From the NCBI RefSeq assembly GCF_053078305.1, contig NZ_CP166879.1: 64,000 nt of DNA; one strand, 5' to 3'. Positions 1,804 to 10,412 of this stretch are shown one piece after another. Below the pieces are notes generated by a model. It was not told where the DNA came from and did not search any database. It was given only the letters and a program-made list of their open reading frames with translations. The stretch's first letter is position 1. Each line of letters starts with the position of its first letter. A program made the position numbers and the translations under genes.

Positions 1804-1827
1804 GTATGCCTTTTTGTATGCCTTTTT
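1804..1827. repeat. Left direct repeat GTATGCCTTTTTGTATGCCTTTTT (putative att)
   Basis: Exact 24-bp copy of 10389-10412. Confidence 0.75.
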
Positions 1828-1985
1828 TGAAAAAGATACCCTTGTTGTTTGATCGTCGATAACGGGTATCAATGTGCACATGCAAATCGATGGCGTTTAT
1901 GTGTGCGCTGTCGAACGTTTGAAAATGGTTTTAGGGCGGTTTTAATGCTGGTTGATGTGGCGCTCTGTGGCGCTCGTTTTGGTGT

Positions 1986-2066
1986 GCTGGTGGCGGGGGT
2001 CGAACCCGCATACATGATCAGCCTGTACAGGCTGGCACCGACTCTACCCGTTGAGCGTACACCAGC
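1986..2066 (-). other. tRNA-like remnant (7-bp acceptor stem GCTGGTG/CACCAGC, canonical T-arm GCGGG-TTCGACC-CCCGC, aberrant anticodon arm, no CCA)
   Basis: Hand-folded from sequence; anticodon region replaced by perfect palindrome CAGCCTGTACAGGCTG. Confidence 0.45.
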
Positions 2067-2090
2067 AAAAAAGCGATGAGGTTGTTGGCT

Positions 2091-2178
2091 GCTGGTGGTG
2101 GGGGTCGAACCCACATAAACATCCCGCTTTCTGGAAGCTATACAAGCGGACGCCGCTTTACCGATTAAGAGTACACCA
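2091..2178 (-). other. Second tRNA-like remnant (T-arm GTGGG-TTCGACC-CCCAC plus CACCAGC 3' acceptor strand; 5' acceptor strand incomplete)
   Basis: Read from sequence; paralogous to 1986-2066 element. Confidence 0.35.
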
Positions 2179-2261
2179 TACAGCCAGGTAAAATAGTAAT
2201 CATGCGTTATGTGCGGGTAAAGTCTGTTTCGTCTGGTAGCACCAGATGAACGGGTATCATT

Positions 2262-2330
2262 ATTTCACCTGATTTCACGTGATTTCGCTTAATTTCACAA
2301 AAATCACCTTCTTTCACCTTCTTTCACAAA
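2262..2330. repeat. Array of six TTTCAC(C) direct repeats (iteron-like, crr-like)
   Basis: TTTCAC at 2264, 2274, 2294, 2313, 2323 plus degenerate copies; resembles P4 type I iteron TGTTCACC. Confidence 0.5.
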
Positions 2331-2461
2331 AAACAAATCATCATTAAAGCGCCTGATTCGCTCTCTGATGCGTTTTGGTGTTTTTGTGGCGTCCGTGATG
2401 CCCTGAAAGGGGATTTTTGCGATAGCGGCGCAAATATAACGGTTGCTGCTGGTATCTGTGG

Positions 2462-2869
2462 TTAGTCTTGCGTGATTTTATTGGCGTGCTTCTTTCTCAG
2501 TCGTCGTATGATGTCGTAAATATGGGTTTCGGATATTGCGTACTCTTTGCGTAATGCCTGCAATTTTTCGCCGTTATCCCACCTGTAGTAAATCTCGTAT
2601 TCGCGCAATGCTGCGAAAAGTGATCTGCCTGTTGGAAGGTAAAGACTTCGCCCACCAGCATAGAAGGCGATTGCAGCGACAACCCGCTTTGCGATTCTGA
2701 AAGCGTCTGCCTCCTCCATGCCATTACGGGTAAGTTCCGCTACTGAATGCGACACGATATCAGCAAGCGAATCACACCATGCATCACCTGGTTTATCTCC
2801 GTTGTCTATGGCGTCGATGAATTTAAGCCGCTCGATGTCTTTTGGTACGTGATGGGTTTGCTCGTTCAT
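2462..2869 (-). CDS. Mor-family-like transcriptional activator
   Basis: 135-aa ORF; C-terminal ...LYLPTGRSL...ISETHIYDIIRR pattern resembles Mor/C-type HTH domain. Confidence 0.55.
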   Translation of the reverse strand: MNEQTHHVPKDIERLKFIDAIDNGDKPGDAWCDSLADIVSHSVAELTRNGMEEADAFRIAKRVVAAIAFYAGGRSLYLPTGRSLFAALREYEIYYRWDNGEKLQALRKEYAISETHIYDIIRRLRKKHANKITQD

Positions 2870-2982
2870 CCGGTAGCCTCTTGCGTTGGTGTATCTGGTC
2901 CTACCAGTTTAATTTAACGTCGCAATAAAACGATATACACGCACACAATCAGAAAAGCCGTCTGACTGTTCCGGTCCCGTGC

Positions 2983-3255
2983 TTACTTCTGGTAGCTACG
3001 CCAGATTTTTTTACATCTCCCTCCTATCCCCATTTCTGCGTAAGTGCGGTTTACTGCTTTCCTCAGGTCTGCGTAGTTCTCCTCTGGCGGCTCCGGTGGC
3101 CTCTGTGCCTTCCCGTAACATTCTGCCCTGCGCATTGCCACCCGTTCGCGTTCCCTGTCAGTCTCCACCAGCATCATCACTTCAGCCCATCGCGCCGCCG
3201 CTCTCCGGTAAAAGCCCTTCGCCTCCAGCTCTTCCGCTATGCTGTCATGTACCAT
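2983..3255 (-). CDS. PerC-family transcriptional regulator-like protein
   Basis: 90-aa ORF with AEELEAKGFYRRAAARWAEVM motif typical of PerC/Pch proteins of prophage-like elements. Confidence 0.6.
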   Translation of the reverse strand: MVHDSIAEELEAKGFYRRAAARWAEVMMLVETDRERERVAMRRAECYGKAQRPPEPPEENYADLRKAVNRTYAEMGIGGRCKKIWRSYQK

Positions 3256-3265
3256 CGTTCACCCC

Positions 3266-3676
3266 TCAGAACGGAATATTGTCACCGTAAGGGTCATCGC
3301 CTCCCACTGGTGGCTGATTACCCTGTGTGCCTGTGGTCCTGCGTCTGTTGCCACCTGGTCGCGCCGTTTTCGCACTGATTACGCTGTCTGCAATGACCTG
3401 ATAACCCTGCCGCGTTTCCCCGTTCTGTCCGGTCCACTGACTGACCTGCATCACACCGGATACGCTGATTACGTTGCCTTTCTCATGTCCTGCCAGTTGG
3501 TCGGCCTGTTTGCCAAATGCCAGGACAGACAGCCATAACGTTGCCTGCCCGTCCTGCGCCTGACTGCATGGCAGCGATACCGCCATACGTGCCAGCGTCA
3601 TCGGTGTGCCCTTACTGGTCTGTTTTGTCTGCGGGTCGTCAATCAGTCGCCCGTAAGCTGCTATCTGCGCTGTCAT
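3266..3676 (-). CDS. Single-stranded DNA-binding protein-like (OB-fold, acidic ...DDPYGDNIPF tail)
   Basis: 136-aa ORF; glycine-rich linker and C-terminal acidic tip ending IPF as in SSB. Confidence 0.55.
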   Translation of the reverse strand: MTAQIAAYGRLIDDPQTKQTSKGTPMTLARMAVSLPCSQAQDGQATLWLSVLAFGKQADQLAGHEKGNVISVSGVMQVSQWTGQNGETRQGYQVIADSVISAKTARPGGNRRRTTGTQGNQPPVGGDDPYGDNIPF

Positions 3677-3777
3677 GATTCCACCTCTCCGGTTTTAACG
3701 TTGATGGTTGTTACCTGTTCCGCTTCTGCAATCTCCCGCTCTGTCAGCGTGGTAAAGTTTGCCGCTGCTGTGCTCAT
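3673..3777 (-). CDS. Small ORF (34 aa, MSTAAANFTTLTEREIAEAEQVTTINVKTGEVES) translationally coupled to ssb-like gene (ATGA overlap)
   Basis: Hand-translated; not in ORF track because below length cutoff. Confidence 0.3.
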   Translation of the reverse strand: MSTAAANFTTLTEREIAEAEQVTTINVKTGEVES

Positions 3778-3915
3778 GAATGCACTTATCAGCCAGGGGG
3801 CTTTCGCGTGTCTTTCTGCCGTGTTGTGGCCCTTCGTTCATGAGCAAAACACTTAAATAAAACTAAAGTGATTTTCTGTGTTTTCGTGCTGCTCTGCTCT
3901 GTGTTTTTTTGCCGT

Positions 3916-4130
3916 TTACTCACCACTACTCACTTTTTTTACTCACTTTTTGGAATCGCTCACTTCGTCTCACCTGAGATTTTTGGTGTTTTTATGTGTG
4001 TGTTTTATAAGTGGTTTTTTACTACTCACTTTTTTGCCTATATACAGGTGAGAAAGTGAGTAATTTTGTTAATTTTTTGTAAAATTACTCACTTTACTCA
4101 CTTTTGCTCCTCACTTTTTTACAGCGGTAC
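3916..4130. repeat. Iteron array: at least 8 copies of ACTCACTTT (one inverted), AT-rich; candidate replication origin
   Basis: Repeats read directly (e.g. TACTCACCACTACTCACTTTTTTTACTCACTTTTT; AAAGTGAGTA inverted copy); immediately 3' of replication helicase gene. Confidence 0.6.
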
Positions 4131-5516
4131 TACGTCATCGCCGTCAATGCGTATAGTCTCGTCTTTCTCCAGTTTTGCTAACCATCGCCGCATGTTTTTC
4201 ACGTCATACCCAAGCCGTTTCATGTCGTCGCGCAACAACGAAATAGTGCACTTGTCGCCGTGCTGTGTGCGTGACCGGATGCAGCCCCATAGCGCGGTAT
4301 GGTTTTCCGTCTTGTTGCCAGCCTCCTCGATGCGCTCCACTTCAACGGGATGACGCGGCTTATCCACCACAACCAGAGACGTGATTAACTCCCCGTCAGC
4401 GTCGGTAAAAAGCTCAACTACCCGCAAATCGTAGGCAGCTTCTTTGAGTTCCTCTGCGTCCTTCATTTTGGTACATGAGATAACCAGCGCTTCGCTTCCT
4501 GCGTCCTCCCTGCGTATCCGGTATTCAGCATCCAGTGATGCACGAAATGCACTGGAACCACGCGCCCCCTTTGTTTCATCCTTGCCGGAATGGTGAACCA
4601 CCAGCACCGTTGCCCCTGTGCGCCGTTTCAGTTCGTCACACCCACGGATAAACGCCCCCATATCACGGGAATCATTTTCATCATTGCCACCAAAGCAACG
4701 CGCCAGCGTATCCAGAATAATCATGCGTACAGGTTTACCCGTTTCCCGTTCCACCTGGCGGGCAGCGATAACCATTTCATCAACATCAAGCGGGGCAGCC
4801 GGAAAGATGGGGCGGTTTACCAGATACAGATTTTTCACCTGCTCACCGTGCACAACCTCCCAGGCTTTTACACGACGCGGAACGCCGATACCGCCTTCAC
4901 CAACCACATAGAGAACAGCGCCATGCGCCACCCTGCGGCCTCCCCACTGGCGGCCCGTGGAAACGTGACACGCCCACGAACCCGCAAGGAACGATTTATA
5001 GGAACCGCTCGCCCCGTATATGCTGCACAGCGATACCGCCGGAATAATCCCCTTAACCACGTAATCCAGTTGCGTGTCATATCCGGCAGAACCAACGCTC
5101 ATCGGTAGCTTTGTTTTGCGCTGGTGGCCTTTTTCTTCCTGCTTTTCCCCGCGCTCCCGTTCCAGATATTCGCGCCAGTTCTCCCGCTTCTGGCTGTGCA
5201 TCCCATCGGGGTAGTAATTCGCATCCTGTACGCCTGCCGCTGCCAGTTTTTGCGCGATGGCATTAATATTTGATGGTCTGATATGGCTTGCTTTGTACAG
5301 CCGGACGCAATAGCGCCCCTCGTCAATGATTTTCGTGTCTGCCAGTTCTGCCAGTTGCTGCTCCCCAAGCCATACAGGTGGCACATTATCGCCAGCAAGT
5401 CGGCCCTCCTGCTCCTGCCACTGCTTCGCGTGTGCCCAGGCATCACTACCCACAAAAATAATGACCTCGGTCATTTTGTCGTAAGGCTGTTTTTTTAAGT
5501 TCGGTGCGCTTTTCAT
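4119..5516 (-). CDS. Replication initiator/helicase (RecA-fold, AAA_25/RepA-like; P4 alpha-like role)
   Basis: 465-aa ORF; Walker A GASGSYKS, Walker B MIILDTLARCF...; C-terminal putative DNA-binding region; adjacent iterons. Confidence 0.8.
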   Translation of the reverse strand: MKSAPNLKKQPYDKMTEVIIFVGSDAWAHAKQWQEQEGRLAGDNVPPVWLGEQQLAELADTKIIDEGRYCVRLYKASHIRPSNINAIAQKLAAAGVQDANYYPDGMHSQKRENWREYLERERGEKQEEKGHQRKTKLPMSVGSAGYDTQLDYVVKGIIPAVSLCSIYGASGSYKSFLAGSWACHVSTGRQWGGRRVAHGAVLYVVGEGGIGVPRRVKAWEVVHGEQVKNLYLVNRPIFPAAPLDVDEMVIAARQVERETGKPVRMIILDTLARCFGGNDENDSRDMGAFIRGCDELKRRTGATVLVVHHSGKDETKGARGSSAFRASLDAEYRIRREDAGSEALVISCTKMKDAEELKEAAYDLRVVELFTDADGELITSLVVVDKPRHPVEVERIEEAGNKTENHTALWGCIRSRTQHGDKCTISLLRDDMKRLGYDVKNMRRWLAKLEKDETIRIDGDDVVPL

Positions 5517-5812
5517 TTCTTACCCCTGAATGCGTTAATCATCTTTTTCATCTTCTGTATTTTTGCCAGTGCCTTTACGTTGCTGGTGGGCACGTTACGC
5601 GGTACCGCCTGCACCAGAGAAAAATCACGGGAAAACTGATAAACAGGCATCACGCAGTCATATTCGTAGCCTTTACGGCGGTAGGTGACGCACCGCCCCG
5701 CCACGCCCTTAATCATTACCGTGCCGCCGTACTGGTCGCGGTAAATATCACCGCGCTTAAATTCAGGGCGAGGCTTGCCGCTGGCAGTTAAGCCAGTTTT
5801 TTTCATGTTCAT
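5513..5812 (-). CDS. Hypothetical small basic protein
   Basis: 99-aa ORF, stop overlaps helicase start (ATGA); no family recognised with confidence. Confidence 0.45.
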   Translation of the reverse strand: MNMKKTGLTASGKPRPEFKRGDIYRDQYGGTVMIKGVAGRCVTYRRKGYEYDCVMPVYQFSRDFSLVQAVPRNVPTSNVKALAKIQKMKKMINAFRGKK

Positions 5813-5885
5813 TTTTTTATCCTTTGTTCTGGTCAGTTACGCCGTTGCTGCATAAATGCGGTTAGCGGTGCCTGTCGTTGCCTTA

Positions 5886-6200
5886 TCACGAATGGCGATA
5901 ATCAGCACTGATATCTCCGTTACGACAACGCCAGTTGTACACCTCCACAACCTCACTGAATCCGGCCACAAGTTCAGCCGTAACAGCGATGGAATCGCCC
6001 AGGCTGCGCAGTTCGTCCATGTCAGGATCAATGCTGTCACTCATGCCAGAAAGTAAGCGCCCTGTGATAGCCAGCCCTTCAAGCAGTTTGCGGGCGTAGA
6101 AATCAGCATCATCAAACATCGCTCTCGCTTCCCGTGCGTCAGCTGCTTTTATGGTTGTAACCAGTTGTTCAAGTATTCTGGTGTTACACACATCACGCAT
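5886..6200 (-). CDS. Hypothetical protein
   Basis: 104-aa ORF in co-oriented gene train; no recognisable motifs. Confidence 0.45.
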   Translation of the reverse strand: MRDVCNTRILEQLVTTIKAADAREARAMFDDADFYARKLLEGLAITGRLLSGMSDSIDPDMDELRSLGDSIAVTAELVAGFSEVVEVYNWRCRNGDISADYRHS

Positions 6201-6363
6201 GACTCACCCCCTCACGAATAAGGGTGACAAAAATCAGATGGGTGTGCGGAAGTTGTGCGCGTGCTTCGTGCTCAGTGGCAGCGGTAACGGTGAATATTGC
6301 AATGCTGCCTGTCAGGCACTGCATAAAGCGCCAGACAAAGTAAGGGCGTGCGGATACAGCCAT
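6193..6363 (-). CDS. Icd-like small protein, copy C (56 aa; MAVSARPYFVWRFMQC...)
   Basis: Internal Met of ORF 6193..6687 preceded by strong SD (AGGAG, ~8-nt spacer); conserved C-terminal block shared by three tandem copies. Confidence 0.5.
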   Translation of the reverse strand: MAVSARPYFVWRFMQCLTGSIAIFTVTAATEHEARAQLPHTHLIFVTLIREGVSHA

Positions 6364-6649
6364 GTGAAAGGCTCCTATGTTTGAGGTAAGGAGTCTCGCT
6401 ACTACGCTGCTAAACATGGTGGCGAGACGTAACAGGGTTAGCAGACTGGCAACATAGAAACCAGCGAGCGCAAAGGCTCCCCCGTTACGCCCCGCCATAA
6501 TGCGGGTATGGGTAGGTTTACGGACACAAAAAAACCGCATATCGGAATGTAAGCGGCTGTCCGCTATGTTATTCAGGCTGCTAAACCCGGTCGCCATGTG
6601 GGTGACTCCGGCATCATACAGCCCGAAAGAAGAGGCGATCAACATGTTT

Positions 6650-6820
6650 TTATCCATGTGATGCCTCCTGACGGATACGGGCGACAAAAATCAGATGTGC
6701 GTGCGGCAGCCGGGCGCGTGCTTCGTGCTCAGTGGCAGCGGTAACGGTGAATACATCGATGTTACTGTGGTGGCACTGCATAAAGCGCCAGACAAAGTAA
6801 GGGCGTGCGAATACAGCCAT
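6650..6820 (-). CDS. Icd-like small protein, copy B (56 aa; MAVFARPYFVWRFMQC...)
   Basis: As copy C; SD AGGAG upstream of internal ATG at 6820. Confidence 0.5.
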   Translation of the reverse strand: MAVFARPYFVWRFMQCHHSNIDVFTVTAATEHEARARLPHAHLIFVARIRQEASHG

Positions 6821-7106
6821 GTGAAAGGCTCCTGTAGTGAAATTAAGGAGTCTCGCTACTACGCTGTCAAACATGGTGGCGAGACGTAACAGGGTTGACA
6901 GACTGGCACTACAGGAACCAGCGAGCGCAAAGGCTCCCCCGTTACGCCCCGCCATAATGCGGGTATGGGTAGGCTTACGGACACAAAAAAACCGCATATC
7001 GGAATGTAAGCGGCTGTCCGCTGTAGTATTCAGGCTGTCAAACCCGGTCGCCATGTGGACGACTCCGGCATCATACAGCCCGAAAGAAGAGGCGATCAAC
7101 ATGTTT

Positions 7107-7295
7107 TTAAGCATGACTCACCCCCTGACGAATACGGGCGGCGAATACAGCGACACAACCGGACGGGCAACGGTTACGCGCTTCGCGTTCCGTCCAGGCG
7201 GTTACGTGGATGATTTGACGTTCTGACGTGCCAAAGGTGATAAAGCGCCAGATAAAGGCGGTTTGAGAATGTACGAGGGCAGGGGTAGTAGCCAT
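7107..7295 (-). CDS. Icd-like small protein, diverged copy A (62 aa; MATTPALVHSQTAFIWRF...)
   Basis: SD AGGAGG upstream of ATG at 7295; C-terminus ...TEREARNRCPSG...ARIRQGVSHA homologous to copies B/C. Confidence 0.45.
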   Translation of the reverse strand: MATTPALVHSQTAFIWRFITFGTSERQIIHVTAWTEREARNRCPSGCVAVFAARIRQGVSHA

Positions 7296-7825
7296 GATGG
7301 CAGCCTCCTTTATCGTTGGGATATACCCACCGCTGGAGGTTCCAATCTCGCTGGCGGTGGACTGCACGGAGTTGGAACTACTGGCGATAAAGGAAACCAG
7401 CCTGACCGAAGTCAGCCCCATACAGCCCACCATTGATAAGGTGTGCGTGTGCGCCGATACAAAAAAAGACGCGTTCGGCGTCTGTATCGCCTTTATCTCC
7501 AGCGGGGTTCCAATCCCGACACCCGTTTTATGAGGTGCGCGGGAATCATAGCCATTTTTGATACTGGCGATCAACTGATTTTCTCTGGCGGGTATTTGGC
7601 GCGGATGCCTGTTACCTGTGGCAATATACACACGACTGTATACAATACACATCGGTTAACTCCTTATATTCCGTTGATGGCCCGTAGTGTTATTGCATTG
7701 CGGGTATTTTTTACCTGCCGTTAATTGAATGCGGCAAGGCATCACGACGGTTAACCCGTTTTGCATAACGTGAGGCGTTTTATTTTCTGCGCTGGTGGCT
7801 TTTATATTTCACATATGGGAATTTA

Positions 7826-8029
7826 TTATTCCTGCTGATAACGCTCCTCTACTTTCTTCTCAAGCCATGATTTCACCTCATCCTCAAACCAGCCAACGCG
7901 GCGTAATCCACGCTTAAAACCAGGAATAAATTCACCAGCCTTAACCATTGTGTCAATGCTCGTTGTACTAAGGCGAAGAAGATTTGCGACTTCTCGTTTT
8001 GTAAGGATTTTCTTTTCTGTAATGTTCAT
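7826..8029 (-). CDS. alpA: AlpA-family phage transcriptional regulator (HTH)
   Basis: 67-aa ORF, LTKREVANLLRLSTTSIDTMVKAGEFIP HTH typical of AlpA/prophage CP4-57 regulator family. Confidence 0.8.
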   Translation of the reverse strand: MNITEKKILTKREVANLLRLSTTSIDTMVKAGEFIPGFKRGLRRVGWFEDEVKSWLEKKVEERYQQE

Positions 8030-8121
8030 ACTTTGCGTTCCTTTTGTTTCAGGCGCTAACTTGCCTAAACTTGTTCAAGGATATGCAAACACGGTAAAAG
8101 CTGGCATTGCGGAATATTACG

Positions 8122-8145
8122 AAAAAAGCCCGTAATATTACGGGC
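8122..8145 (-). terminator. Rho-independent terminator after int-cargo unit
   Basis: Hairpin GCCCGTAATATTACGGGC followed on minus strand by U6. Confidence 0.65.
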
Positions 8146-8166
8146 GGTCATATGTTCAGAAGTCTG

Positions 8167-9063
8167 TCAGTCGTCAACGTCTGCAAGCCACTTACCTATG
8201 CATGTTGGTGTGGCACCGATATCAACGCCTGCTTTGGTTAGTGCGCGGCTTAACTTGCTGTGACCGTTTTCAAGCGCCCTTCGTGGGTTTGACGCCTCTT
8301 CTTCTCCGGCTATAGCGGTGATTAGTCTTTTGATAACTCTGGCCTGAAGATTGGTTGTTTTCTTTGATGGGGGTGGTTTATTGATGTTTAATTCATCCAT
8401 GTTTTCAATAGAAGCGGTACGCCCTCCGTTTATGGCTAAATCTATCTCACTTCTGGAAATAAAAATATCGTTACGTGATATATCCCATCCCTGTAATAAA
8501 ATCGCAGCTTTAAAATCATCCTCGTCATCGTTATCGATTATCTGAATGTATTTAGTATTTGTTGTATCGTGAAATGATAATCTTTCAATGTCTGCGCTGT
8601 TAGCCTTTACATTAAGCAATCCATCAGCTTTAACATATATTTCTTTTGCGGGTGTTATTATTTGTGCGTTTTTTATCTCTGGCTCATCTTCAGCAAAAAT
8701 ATTCATGCTGAAATAATCACCATATGATGAGTAATGATAGTTTATGTTGAGTCCTGCATGTGCATAATAAAAAACATCTATTGGAGTGAGTAGCTTATTT
8801 ATAGATGTGGCATCAATGATTACATTGCAATATTCATTTGTGTAATGCTGGTATAATGTTTTATTAGCACTGATAAGCTCAGGCTTTACCCCTTCATAAT
8901 ACTTTAATGTCAGTTTTTCATTTATATTAATGCGATACAAAAAACGCATCCTCCTCGTAGCGATGAAATGAAGCAAATCATCAACGTCACACTCAAGCCT
9001 TCTGGCTGCCTTGTCTAACGGGTAATAATCCCTTTCAGGAAGGTTTATTTTTTTGTTTGCCAT
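8167..9063 (-). CDS. Hypothetical protein, low-GC cargo (possible N-terminal excisionase-like HTH); function unknown
   Basis: 298-aa ORF 4 bp downstream of integrase stop; markedly AT-rich (about one third GC by eye) versus flanking genes; N/I/D-rich; followed by terminator. Confidence 0.6.
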   Translation of the reverse strand: MANKKINLPERDYYPLDKAARRLECDVDDLLHFIATRRMRFLYRININEKLTLKYYEGVKPELISANKTLYQHYTNEYCNVIIDATSINKLLTPIDVFYYAHAGLNINYHYSSYGDYFSMNIFAEDEPEIKNAQIITPAKEIYVKADGLLNVKANSADIERLSFHDTTNTKYIQIIDNDDEDDFKAAILLQGWDISRNDIFISRSEIDLAINGGRTASIENMDELNINKPPPSKKTTNLQARVIKRLITAIAGEEEASNPRRALENGHSKLSRALTKAGVDIGATPTCIGKWLADVDD

Positions 9064-9067
9064 GCCC

Positions 9068-10348
9068 TTAACCGTTAACCATTTTTAACCCACGATAGCC
9101 ACCCGTGGCGCTTACGCTCCCGCTGGCAGCTGCCTCTACAAAATCCCCCCACCACGCCATTAACGGGCGTCGCTGCTCGAGATAGGTTGAGCGGTTGTAC
9201 GCACGGCGAACCTCGTTTTTATCTATGTGTGACAATGCCGCCTCGATTACGTCAGAGTCAAAACCTTGCTCGTTAAGTGCGGTACTTGCTATTGAGCGCA
9301 AGCCATGAGCAACCAGCCGCCCACTAAAACCCATGCGTTTTATTGCTGCGTTTGCTGTTTGTACGCACATATGGCGCTGCGGGTCGCTGTTGTGTGGAAA
9401 TATAAACTCACGATGCCCGCTTATTGGCTTCATGACGTCCAGAATGGCTAACGCCTGCTTCGAGAGTGGTATTACGTGTTCCCTGCGTTGTTTAAGTCTG
9501 TGCTCTGGTATGCGCCATTCCTTCACCTCAAAATCAATTTCACACCAGCGCGCGCCAGCTGCTTCACCTGGTCGGCAAATTGTCAGTAGCTGCCACTCAA
9601 TGACCAGCCGCGTTTGTCGTTCCACCCGTGCCGTTGCCAGCTTCTGCATAAATTCGGGGAGTTCTTCAGGGCGTATTGCTGGCATGTTCTTAACGCTTGG
9701 CGCGTTAAATGCCTTGCTTATCTCTGATGCCGGATTCGCGGCAATCATTCCGGTATTAACGGCGTAATACATGACCTCATTGATTCGCTGTGCTGTCCTT
9801 CTGACGGTATCTAATTTCCCCTGGGCGGCTAATGGTTTTAATGCTTCGATGAAATTGCTTGCTATCAGGTCTGCTATTGGCCTGTTACCGACTGACGGGA
9901 ATACATTACGCTCCAGCGAACGCCATATATCGCGTAGTGTATCTTCTGCGAGTCCTTGCCCTTTTTTAAGTTCAAACCAGAGCGTAGCTACATGCCTGAA
10001 GGTGTTCTCTCTCTTCATCACTTCACTAAGGCGCTGTTTCTCTCTGTGCTCTTTTGGGTCAATGCCACCAGAAAGAAGCGCTCTGTATTCGTCTTTTATC
10101 TTTCGCGCGCCCGCAATGCTGATTTCTGGATATGCGCCAATGCTTAACATGGCCCGTTTTTTTGTGTGTGGCTTGTAGTAGCGGTAACGCCACAAGCAAG
10201 AGGCGCTTTTGTGCTTAATCACCAGTTCCAGCCCTTCGCCGTCAGTGATGAAAAGGTCCTTTTTTTCGTTGCTGGCTTTTCGCTGGAGGCTTTTTATCGT
10301 TGCGGGTGATAAAGACTTAACTTTTTTGGTCACCGGTTCAACTCCCAT
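9068..10348 (-). CDS. int: Tyrosine site-specific integrase, P4-type
   Basis: 426-aa ORF; catalytic tail ...AHGLRSIASTAL...RAYNRSTY; adjacent to tRNA and att repeat. Confidence 0.9.
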   Translation of the reverse strand: MGVEPVTKKVKSLSPATIKSLQRKASNEKKDLFITDGEGLELVIKHKSASCLWRYRYYKPHTKKRAMLSIGAYPEISIAGARKIKDEYRALLSGGIDPKEHREKQRLSEVMKRENTFRHVATLWFELKKGQGLAEDTLRDIWRSLERNVFPSVGNRPIADLIASNFIEALKPLAAQGKLDTVRRTAQRINEVMYYAVNTGMIAANPASEISKAFNAPSVKNMPAIRPEELPEFMQKLATARVERQTRLVIEWQLLTICRPGEAAGARWCEIDFEVKEWRIPEHRLKQRREHVIPLSKQALAILDVMKPISGHREFIFPHNSDPQRHMCVQTANAAIKRMGFSGRLVAHGLRSIASTALNEQGFDSDVIEAALSHIDKNEVRRAYNRSTYLEQRRPLMAWWGDFVEAAASGSVSATGGYRGLKMVNG

Positions 10349-10388
10349 AAGCTGTTAAAGGCATATGCAAATCTGTGTTTTTTCCGGC

Positions 10389-10412
10389 GTATGCCTTTTT
10401 GTATGCCTTTTT
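10389..10412. repeat. Right direct repeat GTATGCCTTTTTGTATGCCTTTTT (putative att)
   Basis: Exact 24-bp copy of 1804-1827, 41 bp upstream of int start. Confidence 0.75.

Follow-up and report, generated by a model that had tools for sequence, protein, structure and literature searches.

The 64,000-nucleotide stretch of contig NZ_CP166879.1 (assembly GCF_053078305.1) analysed here, hereafter called the window, holds a satellite-like island inserted in an Escherichia coli chromosome, and the replication gene of this island is immediately preceded by two small open reading frames (ORFs), called ORF104 and ORF99. The question raised by this locus is what these two genes are and whether they form a unit. 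The initial annotation had taken them for two co-transcribed genes of no recognisable family, which could be either a derepression or helper-interaction module with a role like that of epsilon, or small accessory factors. The answer proposed here, with a probability of roughly 60%, is that both are genuine genes of an early operon, that ORF99 encodes RgdR and would act as an accessory factor of the replication module, and that ORF104 would be independent cargo gated by the C4/CI antisense RNA. The features concerned are the following.

5886..6200, minus strand: ORF104, 104 amino acids (aa), orphan protein predicted to be an acidic three-helix bundle, in the 'epsilon slot' (alignment, AlphaFold2 model, alignment of the P4 junction)
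5813..5885, minus strand: untranslated spacer of 73 nt between ORF104 and ORF99, holding the recombination joint (blastn against 13 related loci)
5513..5812, minus strand: ORF99, rgdR-like gene, 99 aa, DUF4222 (Pfam, BLAST, AlphaFold2 model)
5513..5516, minus strand: ATGA stop/start overlap of rgdR and the replicase gene (sequence)
4119..5516, minus strand: replicase, 465 aa, an N-terminal domain of about 125 aa followed by an AAA_25 (RepA-type) helicase core (Pfam AAA_25, 146.6 bits; phrog_2850)

Both ORFs are found where they had been annotated, in the same orientation upstream of the replication gene, and the ATGA by which the 99-aa ORF was said to overlap the helicase start is indeed present, reading tcat on the plus strand at 5513-5516. 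More precisely, ORF99 stops with the TGA at 5515-5513 and the 465-aa AAA_25/RepA helicase starts with the ATG at 5516-5514, the Shine-Dalgarno sequence of the replicase lying within the final rgdR codons TTT AGG GGT AAG AAA TGA (FRGKK and stop). At the other end, the start of ORF104 shares 8 nt with the stop of the preceding Icd-like ORF (ATGCGTGA, 6193-6200), and Shine-Dalgarno-like sequences are recognised at all three genes (GAGGGGG, AAGGA and AGGGG). A simple consensus scan detects no terminator-like site on the minus strand from 7467 to 3600, which is compatible with co-transcription. ORF104 and ORF99 are genuine genes, because their homologues keep a constant length free of frameshifts, pairwise dN/dS ratios (nonsynonymous over synonymous substitution rates) amount to about 0.25-0.45 for both of them in unsaturated pairs, their AlphaFold2 models are confident, with a mean predicted local distance difference test (pLDDT) score of 87 for ORF104 and 79 for ORF99, and RefSeq gives both ORFs identical coordinates in near-identical islands.

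The profile searches separate the two proteins. The claim that neither belongs to a recognisable family stands for ORF104, which matches nothing in Pfam, PHROGs, NCBIfam, PADLOC or the PDB sequences, but fails for ORF99, which matches the full Pfam profile DUF4222 (PF13973) over residues 16-68 with 82.3 bits (gathering cutoff 27 bits; E 1.8e-23) as well as phrog_285 (E 9e-29). That the genes encode small accessory factors of a satellite is, as a general idea, right; that both are unknown is not, ORF99 being RgdR/DUF4222. Compared with ECs1581 of E. coli O157 Sakai, ORF99 is identical at 73 of 99 positions (74%), gapless and over the full length (E 3e-53), and both the RGD triplet (residues 20-22, in KRGDIY) and K35 (in MIKGV) are kept between the two; in distant DUF4222 proteins the RGD is not conserved, the consensus being PGD. 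By these alignments, ORF99 is an orthologue of RgdR.

ECs1581 was named RgdR in a study reporting that it activates the LEE1 promoter in the enterocyte effacement locus (LEE) without requiring Ler, enhances type III secretion, reduces motility and promotes Congo-red binding, that it binds DNA weakly and non-specifically, and that residues 20 and 35 modulate its activity; deletion and complementation of rgdR gave phenotypes on LEE1, type III secretion, adherence and sheep colonisation (PMC3378721). All analysed E. coli phage-inducible chromosomal islands (PICIs) encode RgdR, which was treated there as accessory virulence cargo (PMC6092414), and a search of the available literature returned no later functional or structural work on this protein. 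The RgdR of the window is basic (isoelectric point 10.3, net charge +15), and its AlphaFold2 model begins with a disordered N-terminus, continues with a five-strand barrel that is SH3/Tudor-like (approximately residues 20-68) and has a basic helix at the C-terminal end (residues 77-96), the charge being consistent with a predicted binding to DNA. Tudor-like domains that interact with RNA polymerase (UvrD/PcrA C-terminal, CarD/CdnL N-terminal) and KOW domains share 11-18% identity with RgdR, which amounts to no relation at the sequence level, the fold being very common. The gene rgdR is found in about 23% of the complete E. coli genomes, including LEE-negative lineages (the latter also reported in PMC3378721), and relatives occur in other genera and in metagenomes.

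The evidence that carries the proposed role of RgdR is its linkage to replication genes. All of the approximately 95 satellite loci with a DUF4222 gene that were opened, down to 26% identity, show the ATGA overlap with the replication gene, and so do 80 of 80 IMG/VR loci with a close RgdR relative, each of 99 codons, these counts exceeding the number of independent observations since the sampled loci represent a few lineages many times. The same overlap occurs in Sakai Sp7 and in a capsid-forming PICI (cfPICI), and six distant DUF4222 contexts (26-37% identity) from other hosts and metagenomes have the same 4-nt overlap. The partners of close RgdR relatives are AAA_25 proteins of 465-469 aa, proteins with the C-terminal half of P4 alpha (D5_N/DUF5906/Pox_D5) of 582-601 aa and DUF927 proteins of 710-717 aa; those of distant DUF4222 proteins are DUF927, superfamily 3 (SF3)-type and AAA_25 replicases and, at locus L171, one Zn-ribbon primase-type protein. 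In addition, a short form reduced to the barrel is present in 114 temperate-phage records. In KpnBHU6, SaltyDalty, SfIV and e14, the last a prophage of E. coli K-12, this short DUF4222 gene lies in the early operon between cro/cII-like genes and an HTH_36/DnaD-like initiator gene whose start it overlaps; these lambdoid forms resemble RgdR in their DUF4222 scores (50-73 bits) and placement, and differ from it in being 59-73 aa long, with neither the N-terminal tail nor the C-terminal basic helix, and in having HTH_36/DnaD-like initiators as partners.

The RgdR of Sp7 (O-island 51) and C1493 of EcCICFT073 are also 99 aa long, 74% identical and collinear, and the gene order there, namely small ORFs, rgdR, ATGA, replicase, ssb and perC/pchE, is that of the window. 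Unlike in Sp7, where rgdR precedes a 710-aa DUF927 protein, the replicase is here the 465-aa AAA_25 helicase; in contrast to both elements, the upstream neighbour of rgdR is here ORF104 instead of the usual 77-aa family, and the window island carries no capsid or packaging genes.

Identity between RgdR proteins does not correlate with identity between the N-terminal domains of the adjacent replicases (Spearman 0.05), identical RgdR alleles are found before replicases of different type, and one and the same RgdR protein (P0196) precedes two unrelated N-domains. This lack of co-variation, together with the shared alleles, argues for a generic rather than a replicase-specific target, so that an RgdR acting independently of the initiator architecture would be favoured. 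The N-domain itself (residues 1-125 in the window, MKxAPN...EVIIFAGSDAW...) has no Pfam family; it is present, with a length of about 125 aa, in most RgdR partner replicases, is common to replicases with unrelated helicase halves (AAA_25, the P4-alpha C-half and DUF927), and stands where P4 alpha has its Zn-ribbon/Toprim primase half. Binding of RgdR to this shared domain was considered as well, and is weakened by the lack of co-variation, the shared alleles and the partners with other N-termini. No primase domain and no Toprim/Zn-ribbon homologue was detected for the window replicase. Such a homologue is found in 0 of 87 RgdR loci, whereas the Toprim/Zn-ribbon primase query matched all but one of 72 loci lacking RgdR; the idea that RgdR replaces the missing primase was nevertheless dropped as a rule, since the gene coupled to DUF4222 at L171 is that of a Zn-ribbon primase-type protein.

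Some DUF4222 ORFs are hidden in current annotations. Record annotations suggested fusions of DUF4222 to Rha/Ant antirepressors, which were discarded: the matches lie in another frame and the annotated proteins do not contain the domain. In sb41 of ST64B (L174, 2858-4015) and in 'antirepressor/Rha' genes of Stx phages, the DUF4222-like tblastn matches are out of frame in the 5' part, and in the Rha, antirepressor and transcriptional-regulator genes that overlap such matches the N-terminal 114 or so residues carry no domain; the annotated starts of these Rha/antirepressor genes are probably placed too far upstream, thereby hiding a DUF4222 ORF. Within ymfM of e14, in another frame, an unannotated 59-aa DUF4222 ORF (NC_000913.3, 1204001-1204180; Pfam 67 bits) overlaps the start of the replication gene ymfN/oweE, and phage SfIV has an unannotated DUF4222 ORF likewise in the region annotated as the ymfM frame (L176, 2959-3180). 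The own frame of ymfM, a 'cell division inhibitor', matches no Pfam family. The study of filamentation by ymfM cloned the ymfM ORF, and a text search of its preprint returned no frame-specific mutants. The embedded e14 ORF is thus a concrete annotation question for E. coli K-12.

Whether ORF104 and rgdR belong together was addressed by comparison with 13 related loci (blastn), in which a further feature takes part.

3921..4120, no strand assigned: iteron-like repeats TACTCACTTTTT, adjoining the replicase gene on its downstream side (direct repeats, families D2 and D5)

These repeats are probably the replication origin (ori), an assignment made because their position is analogous to that of PICI origins (PMC6092414). 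Homology to PICI-type loci, covering rgdR, repA and ori, ends at 5823, and homology to ORF104-type loci spans 5875-6212; as these alignments indicate, ORF104 and rgdR stem from separate island lineages that a module swap brought together at 5824-5874. Island L164 has mor-perC-ssb, ORF104 and the Icd units in common with the window, which departs from it at 3512-5908 in having rgdR, repA and ori in place of Toprim and DUF927 genes. By this comparison, rgdR, repA and ori came in jointly, the rest of the backbone being common to the two islands. Of the 80 RgdR loci, none carries ORF104, and the ORF104-rgdR pair is found in 7 of 5426 complete E. coli genomes. Ordinary PICIs have one to five other small ORFs, of several unrelated families, between Icd and rgdR; this slot holds 11 ORF families and varies in length from 200 to 1300 bp. 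The two genes were initially regarded as one module, a view which does not survive the missing co-occurrence and the recombination joint between them; in terms of synteny, the linkage of rgdR to the replicase is kept and the pairing of ORF104 with rgdR is not. As regards the 73-nt spacer, its homology to native ORF104 islands is confined to the first 11 nt past the ORF104 stop, and its origin as a relic of the 5' part of the native primase gene was rejected, 188 of 1000 shuffles reaching the observed alignment score.

Since the ATGA coupling is invariant over five or more unrelated initiator architectures, both in satellites and in lambdoid phages, and since rgdR moves with the replication module, the primary role of RgdR probably lies in the replication or the early programme of the mobile element.

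The upstream partner lies next to the immunity region.

6193..7652, minus strand: immunity unit of P1/P4 type in three tandem 457-bp copies (Rfam, NCBIfam, repeats D1, D4 and D8)

Each copy comprises a promoter-like site (TTGATC-18-TATGAT), isrK (Rfam match of 63.8 bits), a C4/CI antisense RNA, a1b1-like targets and an Ash/Icd-like ORF. The three C4/CI RNAs (7350-7437, 6872-6959 and 6415-6502) score 72-78 bits against an Rfam gathering score of 45, and the NCBIfam model NF033153 (Icd-like domain) matches all three ORFs. Sister islands in other strains have two copies of the unit. The unit lies upstream of ORF104 and is linked to it translationally by the overlap, and a C4/CI RNA also precedes both ORF104 in its native islands and epsilon of P4. 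In aligned positions, the junction at which the Icd-like ORF ends and the following gene begins is homologous in the window (ATGCGTGA) and in P4 (GTGCGTAA).

The left operon of P4 (vis/orf88, CI RNA, epsilon, orf151, cnr, alpha) indeed shows the same order of functions as the island: an AlpA/Vis-type helix-turn-helix (HTH) protein, isrK with the C4/CI RNA and an Ash/Icd-like ORF, a small ORF with an 8-nt overlap, an ORF of about 100 aa next to the replicase gene (P4 cnr, of 106 aa, lies upstream of alpha) and then the replicase. It differs in that the window replicase has no Zn-ribbon/Toprim primase half, unlike alpha, and that the island carries no sid, delta or psu. By analogy with P4, ORF104 is in the position of epsilon and rgdR in that of cnr, the equivalence being one of position only. 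An epsilon-like role, as initially proposed, thus finds positional support for ORF104 alone, and neither protein is similar to epsilon: there is no Pfam match of ORF104 or ORF99 to epsilon (PF25738) at E<=0.1, epsilon itself scoring 170 bits, and hhalign of the ORF104 alignment against epsilon gives a probability of 0.25%. For Cnr (PF17345, DUF5375; 211 bits for Cnr itself), RgdR gives a BLASTP E of 0.12 over 12 residues and an hhalign probability of 0.07%. Homology of ORF104 or RgdR to epsilon, ORF151 or Cnr was therefore rejected, BLASTP and hhalign being negative. In P4 ORF151 (L009, 7440-7895), motifs similar to those of DUF4222 are seen in the same order, PGEIYR for PGDIYRD and IPLGRFLREF for PxxRFxREF. 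DUF4222 compared with an ORF151 profile built from 16 P4-like loci reaches an hhalign probability of 9%, which is not significant, and a remote relation of the two families, with a 20-residue insertion, is possible. The immI region of P1/P7 (c4, icd, ant) likewise combines, as in the island, a C4 RNA, a1b1-type targets and an Icd-like stop that overlaps the next start. In P1, the gene that follows icd is the antirepressor gene ant. Unlike in P1/P7, the immunity unit of the island is triplicated and the downstream gene is ORF104, in which no antirepressor domain is detected, be it ANT/KilAC or another.

ORF104 belongs to a family of about 60 clusters, 55-99% identical and 103-105 aa long, which ranges over E. 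coli, Salmonella, Klebsiella, Citrobacter, Lelliottia, Plesiomonas and freshwater metagenomes, in Enterobacterales-type islands throughout; it is rare, 38 of the 5426 complete E. coli genomes carrying it. The protein is acidic (isoelectric point 4.55; family range 4.3-4.9), and the AlphaFold2 model is a three-helix bundle with the pLDDT given above. Membership in a defence system was dismissed, PADLOC being without matches. In its native islands the order is int, (cargo), HTH, Ash/C4, ORF104, Toprim_3 primase and DUF927 helicase, with 8-nt overlaps on both sides of ORF104 and no DUF4222 gene (RgdR in 0 of 9 loci). Together with the swapped replicase module, ORF104 is found in 7 genomes and at least two insertion sites. 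As it survived the swap of the replicase in an island that has spread, ORF104 is unlikely to be a replicase-specific cofactor, and a role directed at the helper or the host appears more likely.

Taken together, these data suggest the following scheme. AlpA would head the early operon, which the C4/CI antisense-RNA immunity unit would gate. RgdR, as the fixed first gene product of the replication module, would be translated in tandem with the replicase through the ATGA and would be a low-specificity DNA-binding accessory factor, directed at the nucleoid or at RNA polymerase and made together with the initiator, helping the origin to fire or the silenced island to be expressed; its effects on the host (LEE1 up, motility down, Congo-red binding up) would be by-products. 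In this context, loss of the H-NS partner Hha in O157 raises LEE expression and lowers motility (PMC3897532), as RgdR does; combined with the non-specific binding to DNA, this likeness renders counter-silencing plausible as the route taken by RgdR, the alternative route, suggested by the modelled Tudor-like barrel, being binding to RNA polymerase. ORF104 would stem from the Toprim-primase/DUF927 island lineage and comes first after the Icd-like ORF, like epsilon in P4 and ant in P1, so that the C4/CI RNA is expected to gate its translation; its product would most likely bind a helper or host protein.

Several points weigh against this scheme. The functional data on RgdR concern host virulence regulation only, its role in replication being one that we infer; the translational coupling could serve just to set replicase expression; and Toprim/DUF927 islands and P4 replicate without a DUF4222 gene, so that replication does not depend on DUF4222 in general. 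The DUF4222 ORF of ST64B is separated from the replication gene by an Ash/Rha gene, and the repeated sampling of a few lineages inflates the counts of coupled loci. As for ORF104, the clues to its function are its position, its charge and its predicted fold, and this fold gives only generic helical matches, none of them significant among viral models.

These objections have to be weighed together with other explanations of the same data. If ORF104 and RgdR formed, as a pair, an epsilon-like module of derepression or helper interaction acting against the repressor of a helper phage, one would understand why the small and acidic ORF104 sits exactly where P4 has epsilon, down to the 8-nt overlap, and why the Icd-rgdR slot is so variable, as expected of partner-specific factors; this is nevertheless unlikely, given that neither protein resembles epsilon, ORF151 or Cnr or has a significant viral fold match, that the two genes almost never co-occur and have a recombination joint between them, and that Gram-negative PICIs are reportedly induced by helper-driven alpA transcription and not by helper derepression (PMC6092414). 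Another reading would see in RgdR a moron-type virulence regulator that benefits the host, plays no part in the satellite and is adjacent to the replicase gene by chance, as could be argued from the phenotypes on LEE1, type III secretion, adherence and sheep colonisation (PMC3378721), from its treatment as an accessory virulence gene (PMC6092414) and from the PerC/Pch homologues, also acting on LEE, that the same islands carry. The distribution of rgdR, which reaches LEE-negative lineages among the 23% or so of E. coli genomes as well as other genera and metagenomes, the ATGA coupling that is invariant from 26 to 100% identity, the same placement in lambdoid phages and the movement with the replication module make this reading improbable to a similar degree. 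Besides, morons are usually located at the ends of elements and have their own promoter, which also counts against it.

A Cnr-like RgdR, which would bind the replicase and set the copy number as Cnr of P4 does for alpha, is also doubtful. Its position and size, close to those of the 106-aa Cnr, the stoichiometry fixed by the ATGA coupling and the N-domain of about 125 aa common to most partner replicases fit such a function, but RgdR is unrelated in sequence to Cnr/DUF5375, shows no co-variation with the N-domain (rho 0.05), serves different replicases with identical alleles, precedes two unrelated N-domains in the case of P0196, and has Zn-ribbon primase and DnaD-like partners which share no domain. 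Finally, the small ORFs could mainly relay translational coupling from icd to the replicase against Rho-dependent polarity, as in c4-icd-ant of P1, their products having little function. Although many islands do show chains of 4- and 8-nt overlaps from the Icd-like ORF through the slot ORFs to the replicase, and the content of the slot is freely exchangeable, such a relay is very improbable: purifying selection acts on both proteins, whose predicted folds are compact and confident, the phenotypes of RgdR hinge at the protein level on single residues (PMC3378721), and the 73-nt spacer breaks the chain in the window, yet the island has spread. RgdR as a companion of the replication module and ORF104 as separately acquired, gated cargo is thus the preferred reading. 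A bolder form of it can be put forward tentatively, in which DUF4222/RgdR would not primarily regulate virulence but be a widespread companion of initiators, irrespective of their architecture, in temperate phages and the satellites of these, co-translated with the initiator and acting on a conserved component of the host (nucleoid silencing by H-NS/Hha, RNA polymerase, or the division/replication machinery), with the LEE1, motility and Congo-red phenotypes of enterohaemorrhagic E. coli as collateral effects, and ORF104 a new C4/CI-gated occupant of the epsilon/ant slot, unrelated in sequence. If this were true, the filamentation assigned to ymfM of e14 might be another collateral effect, through the embedded DUF4222 ORF.

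RgdR has been known so far as a horizontally acquired activator of type III secretion in enterohaemorrhagic E. coli, and PICI papers list it as virulence cargo; with a primary role in the element, the crosstalk between satellites and virulence islands could be interpreted as secondary to the action of a takeover factor. ORF104 would add one more unrelated family at the position where P4 and P1 have helper-directed antirepressors, which makes the epsilon/ant slot a place to seek new helper-interaction proteins.

As for the setting, the host context of the window is that of an E. coli chromosome, with nfeR/yqjI, nfeF/yqjH, a tRNA with a CAT anticodon (ileX), mug, rpoD and dnaG. The remaining features of the island are listed below.

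1804..10412, minus strand: satellite-like island of 8.6 kb between nfeF (yqjH) and the ileX tRNA
9068-10348, minus strand: integrase gene (integrase domains; a tyrosine integrase, as in PICIs)
7826..8029, minus strand: gene of an AlpA-like regulator, first in the operon (Pfam HTH_17, and Phage_AlpA with 23 bits for a cutoff of 21)
2983-3255 and 2462-2869, minus strand: genes of a PerC/Pch-family and a Mor-family activator (Pfam/PHROGs)
1985-2066 and about 2090-2170, minus strand: two tRNA-like sequences at the far island end (Rfam tRNA, 35 bits for the first)

The island is flanked by a 24-bp exact direct repeat (GTATGCCTTTTTGTATGCCTTTTT; 1804-1827 and 10389-10412, 8585 bp apart), which sits about 120 bp away from the ileX tRNA and not within it. 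All genes are on the minus strand, in the order int, hyp298 (a 298-aa protein without a family), alpA, the three immunity copies, ORF104, rgdR, repA, ori, ssb, perC, mor and the two tRNA-like genes. The island shares with PICIs a tyrosine integrase, alpA, whose product is the activator of PICIs (PMC6092414), a replicase gene with adjacent ori, a size within about 8-15 kb and flanking attachment (att) repeats; genes for the hijacking of helper packaging (terS, rpp/ppi, cf-PICI capsid genes) were not recognised among its ORFs by Pfam and PHROGs. Its gene content is that of an AlpA-type, PICI-like phage satellite, with helper-dependent induction and high-frequency transfer suggested only indirectly, by its distribution in strains. 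Near-identical islands, annotated alike, are present in seven complete genomes. The same island occupies the nfeF/ileX site in several strains and lies within mdtP in strain JNEC-KY203, whose genome has three matches to the ORF104 gene, two of which were opened (mdtP and the nfeF/ileX site); the second site inside mdtP and the multiple matches suggest recent mobility.

RgdR and PerC/Pch are two families of the island that act on LEE elsewhere, the Mor-family activator being encoded alongside, and these three look like core regulators of the satellite rather than virulence cargo. A second repeat cluster, of TTTCAC type, is located at 2265-2332 near the mor end of the island. Concerning the two tRNA-like sequences, ARAGORN detects neither of them, RefSeq labels the pair tRNA-Tyr and tRNA-OTHER in sister islands, and a 37-nt repeat (D3) is common to both.

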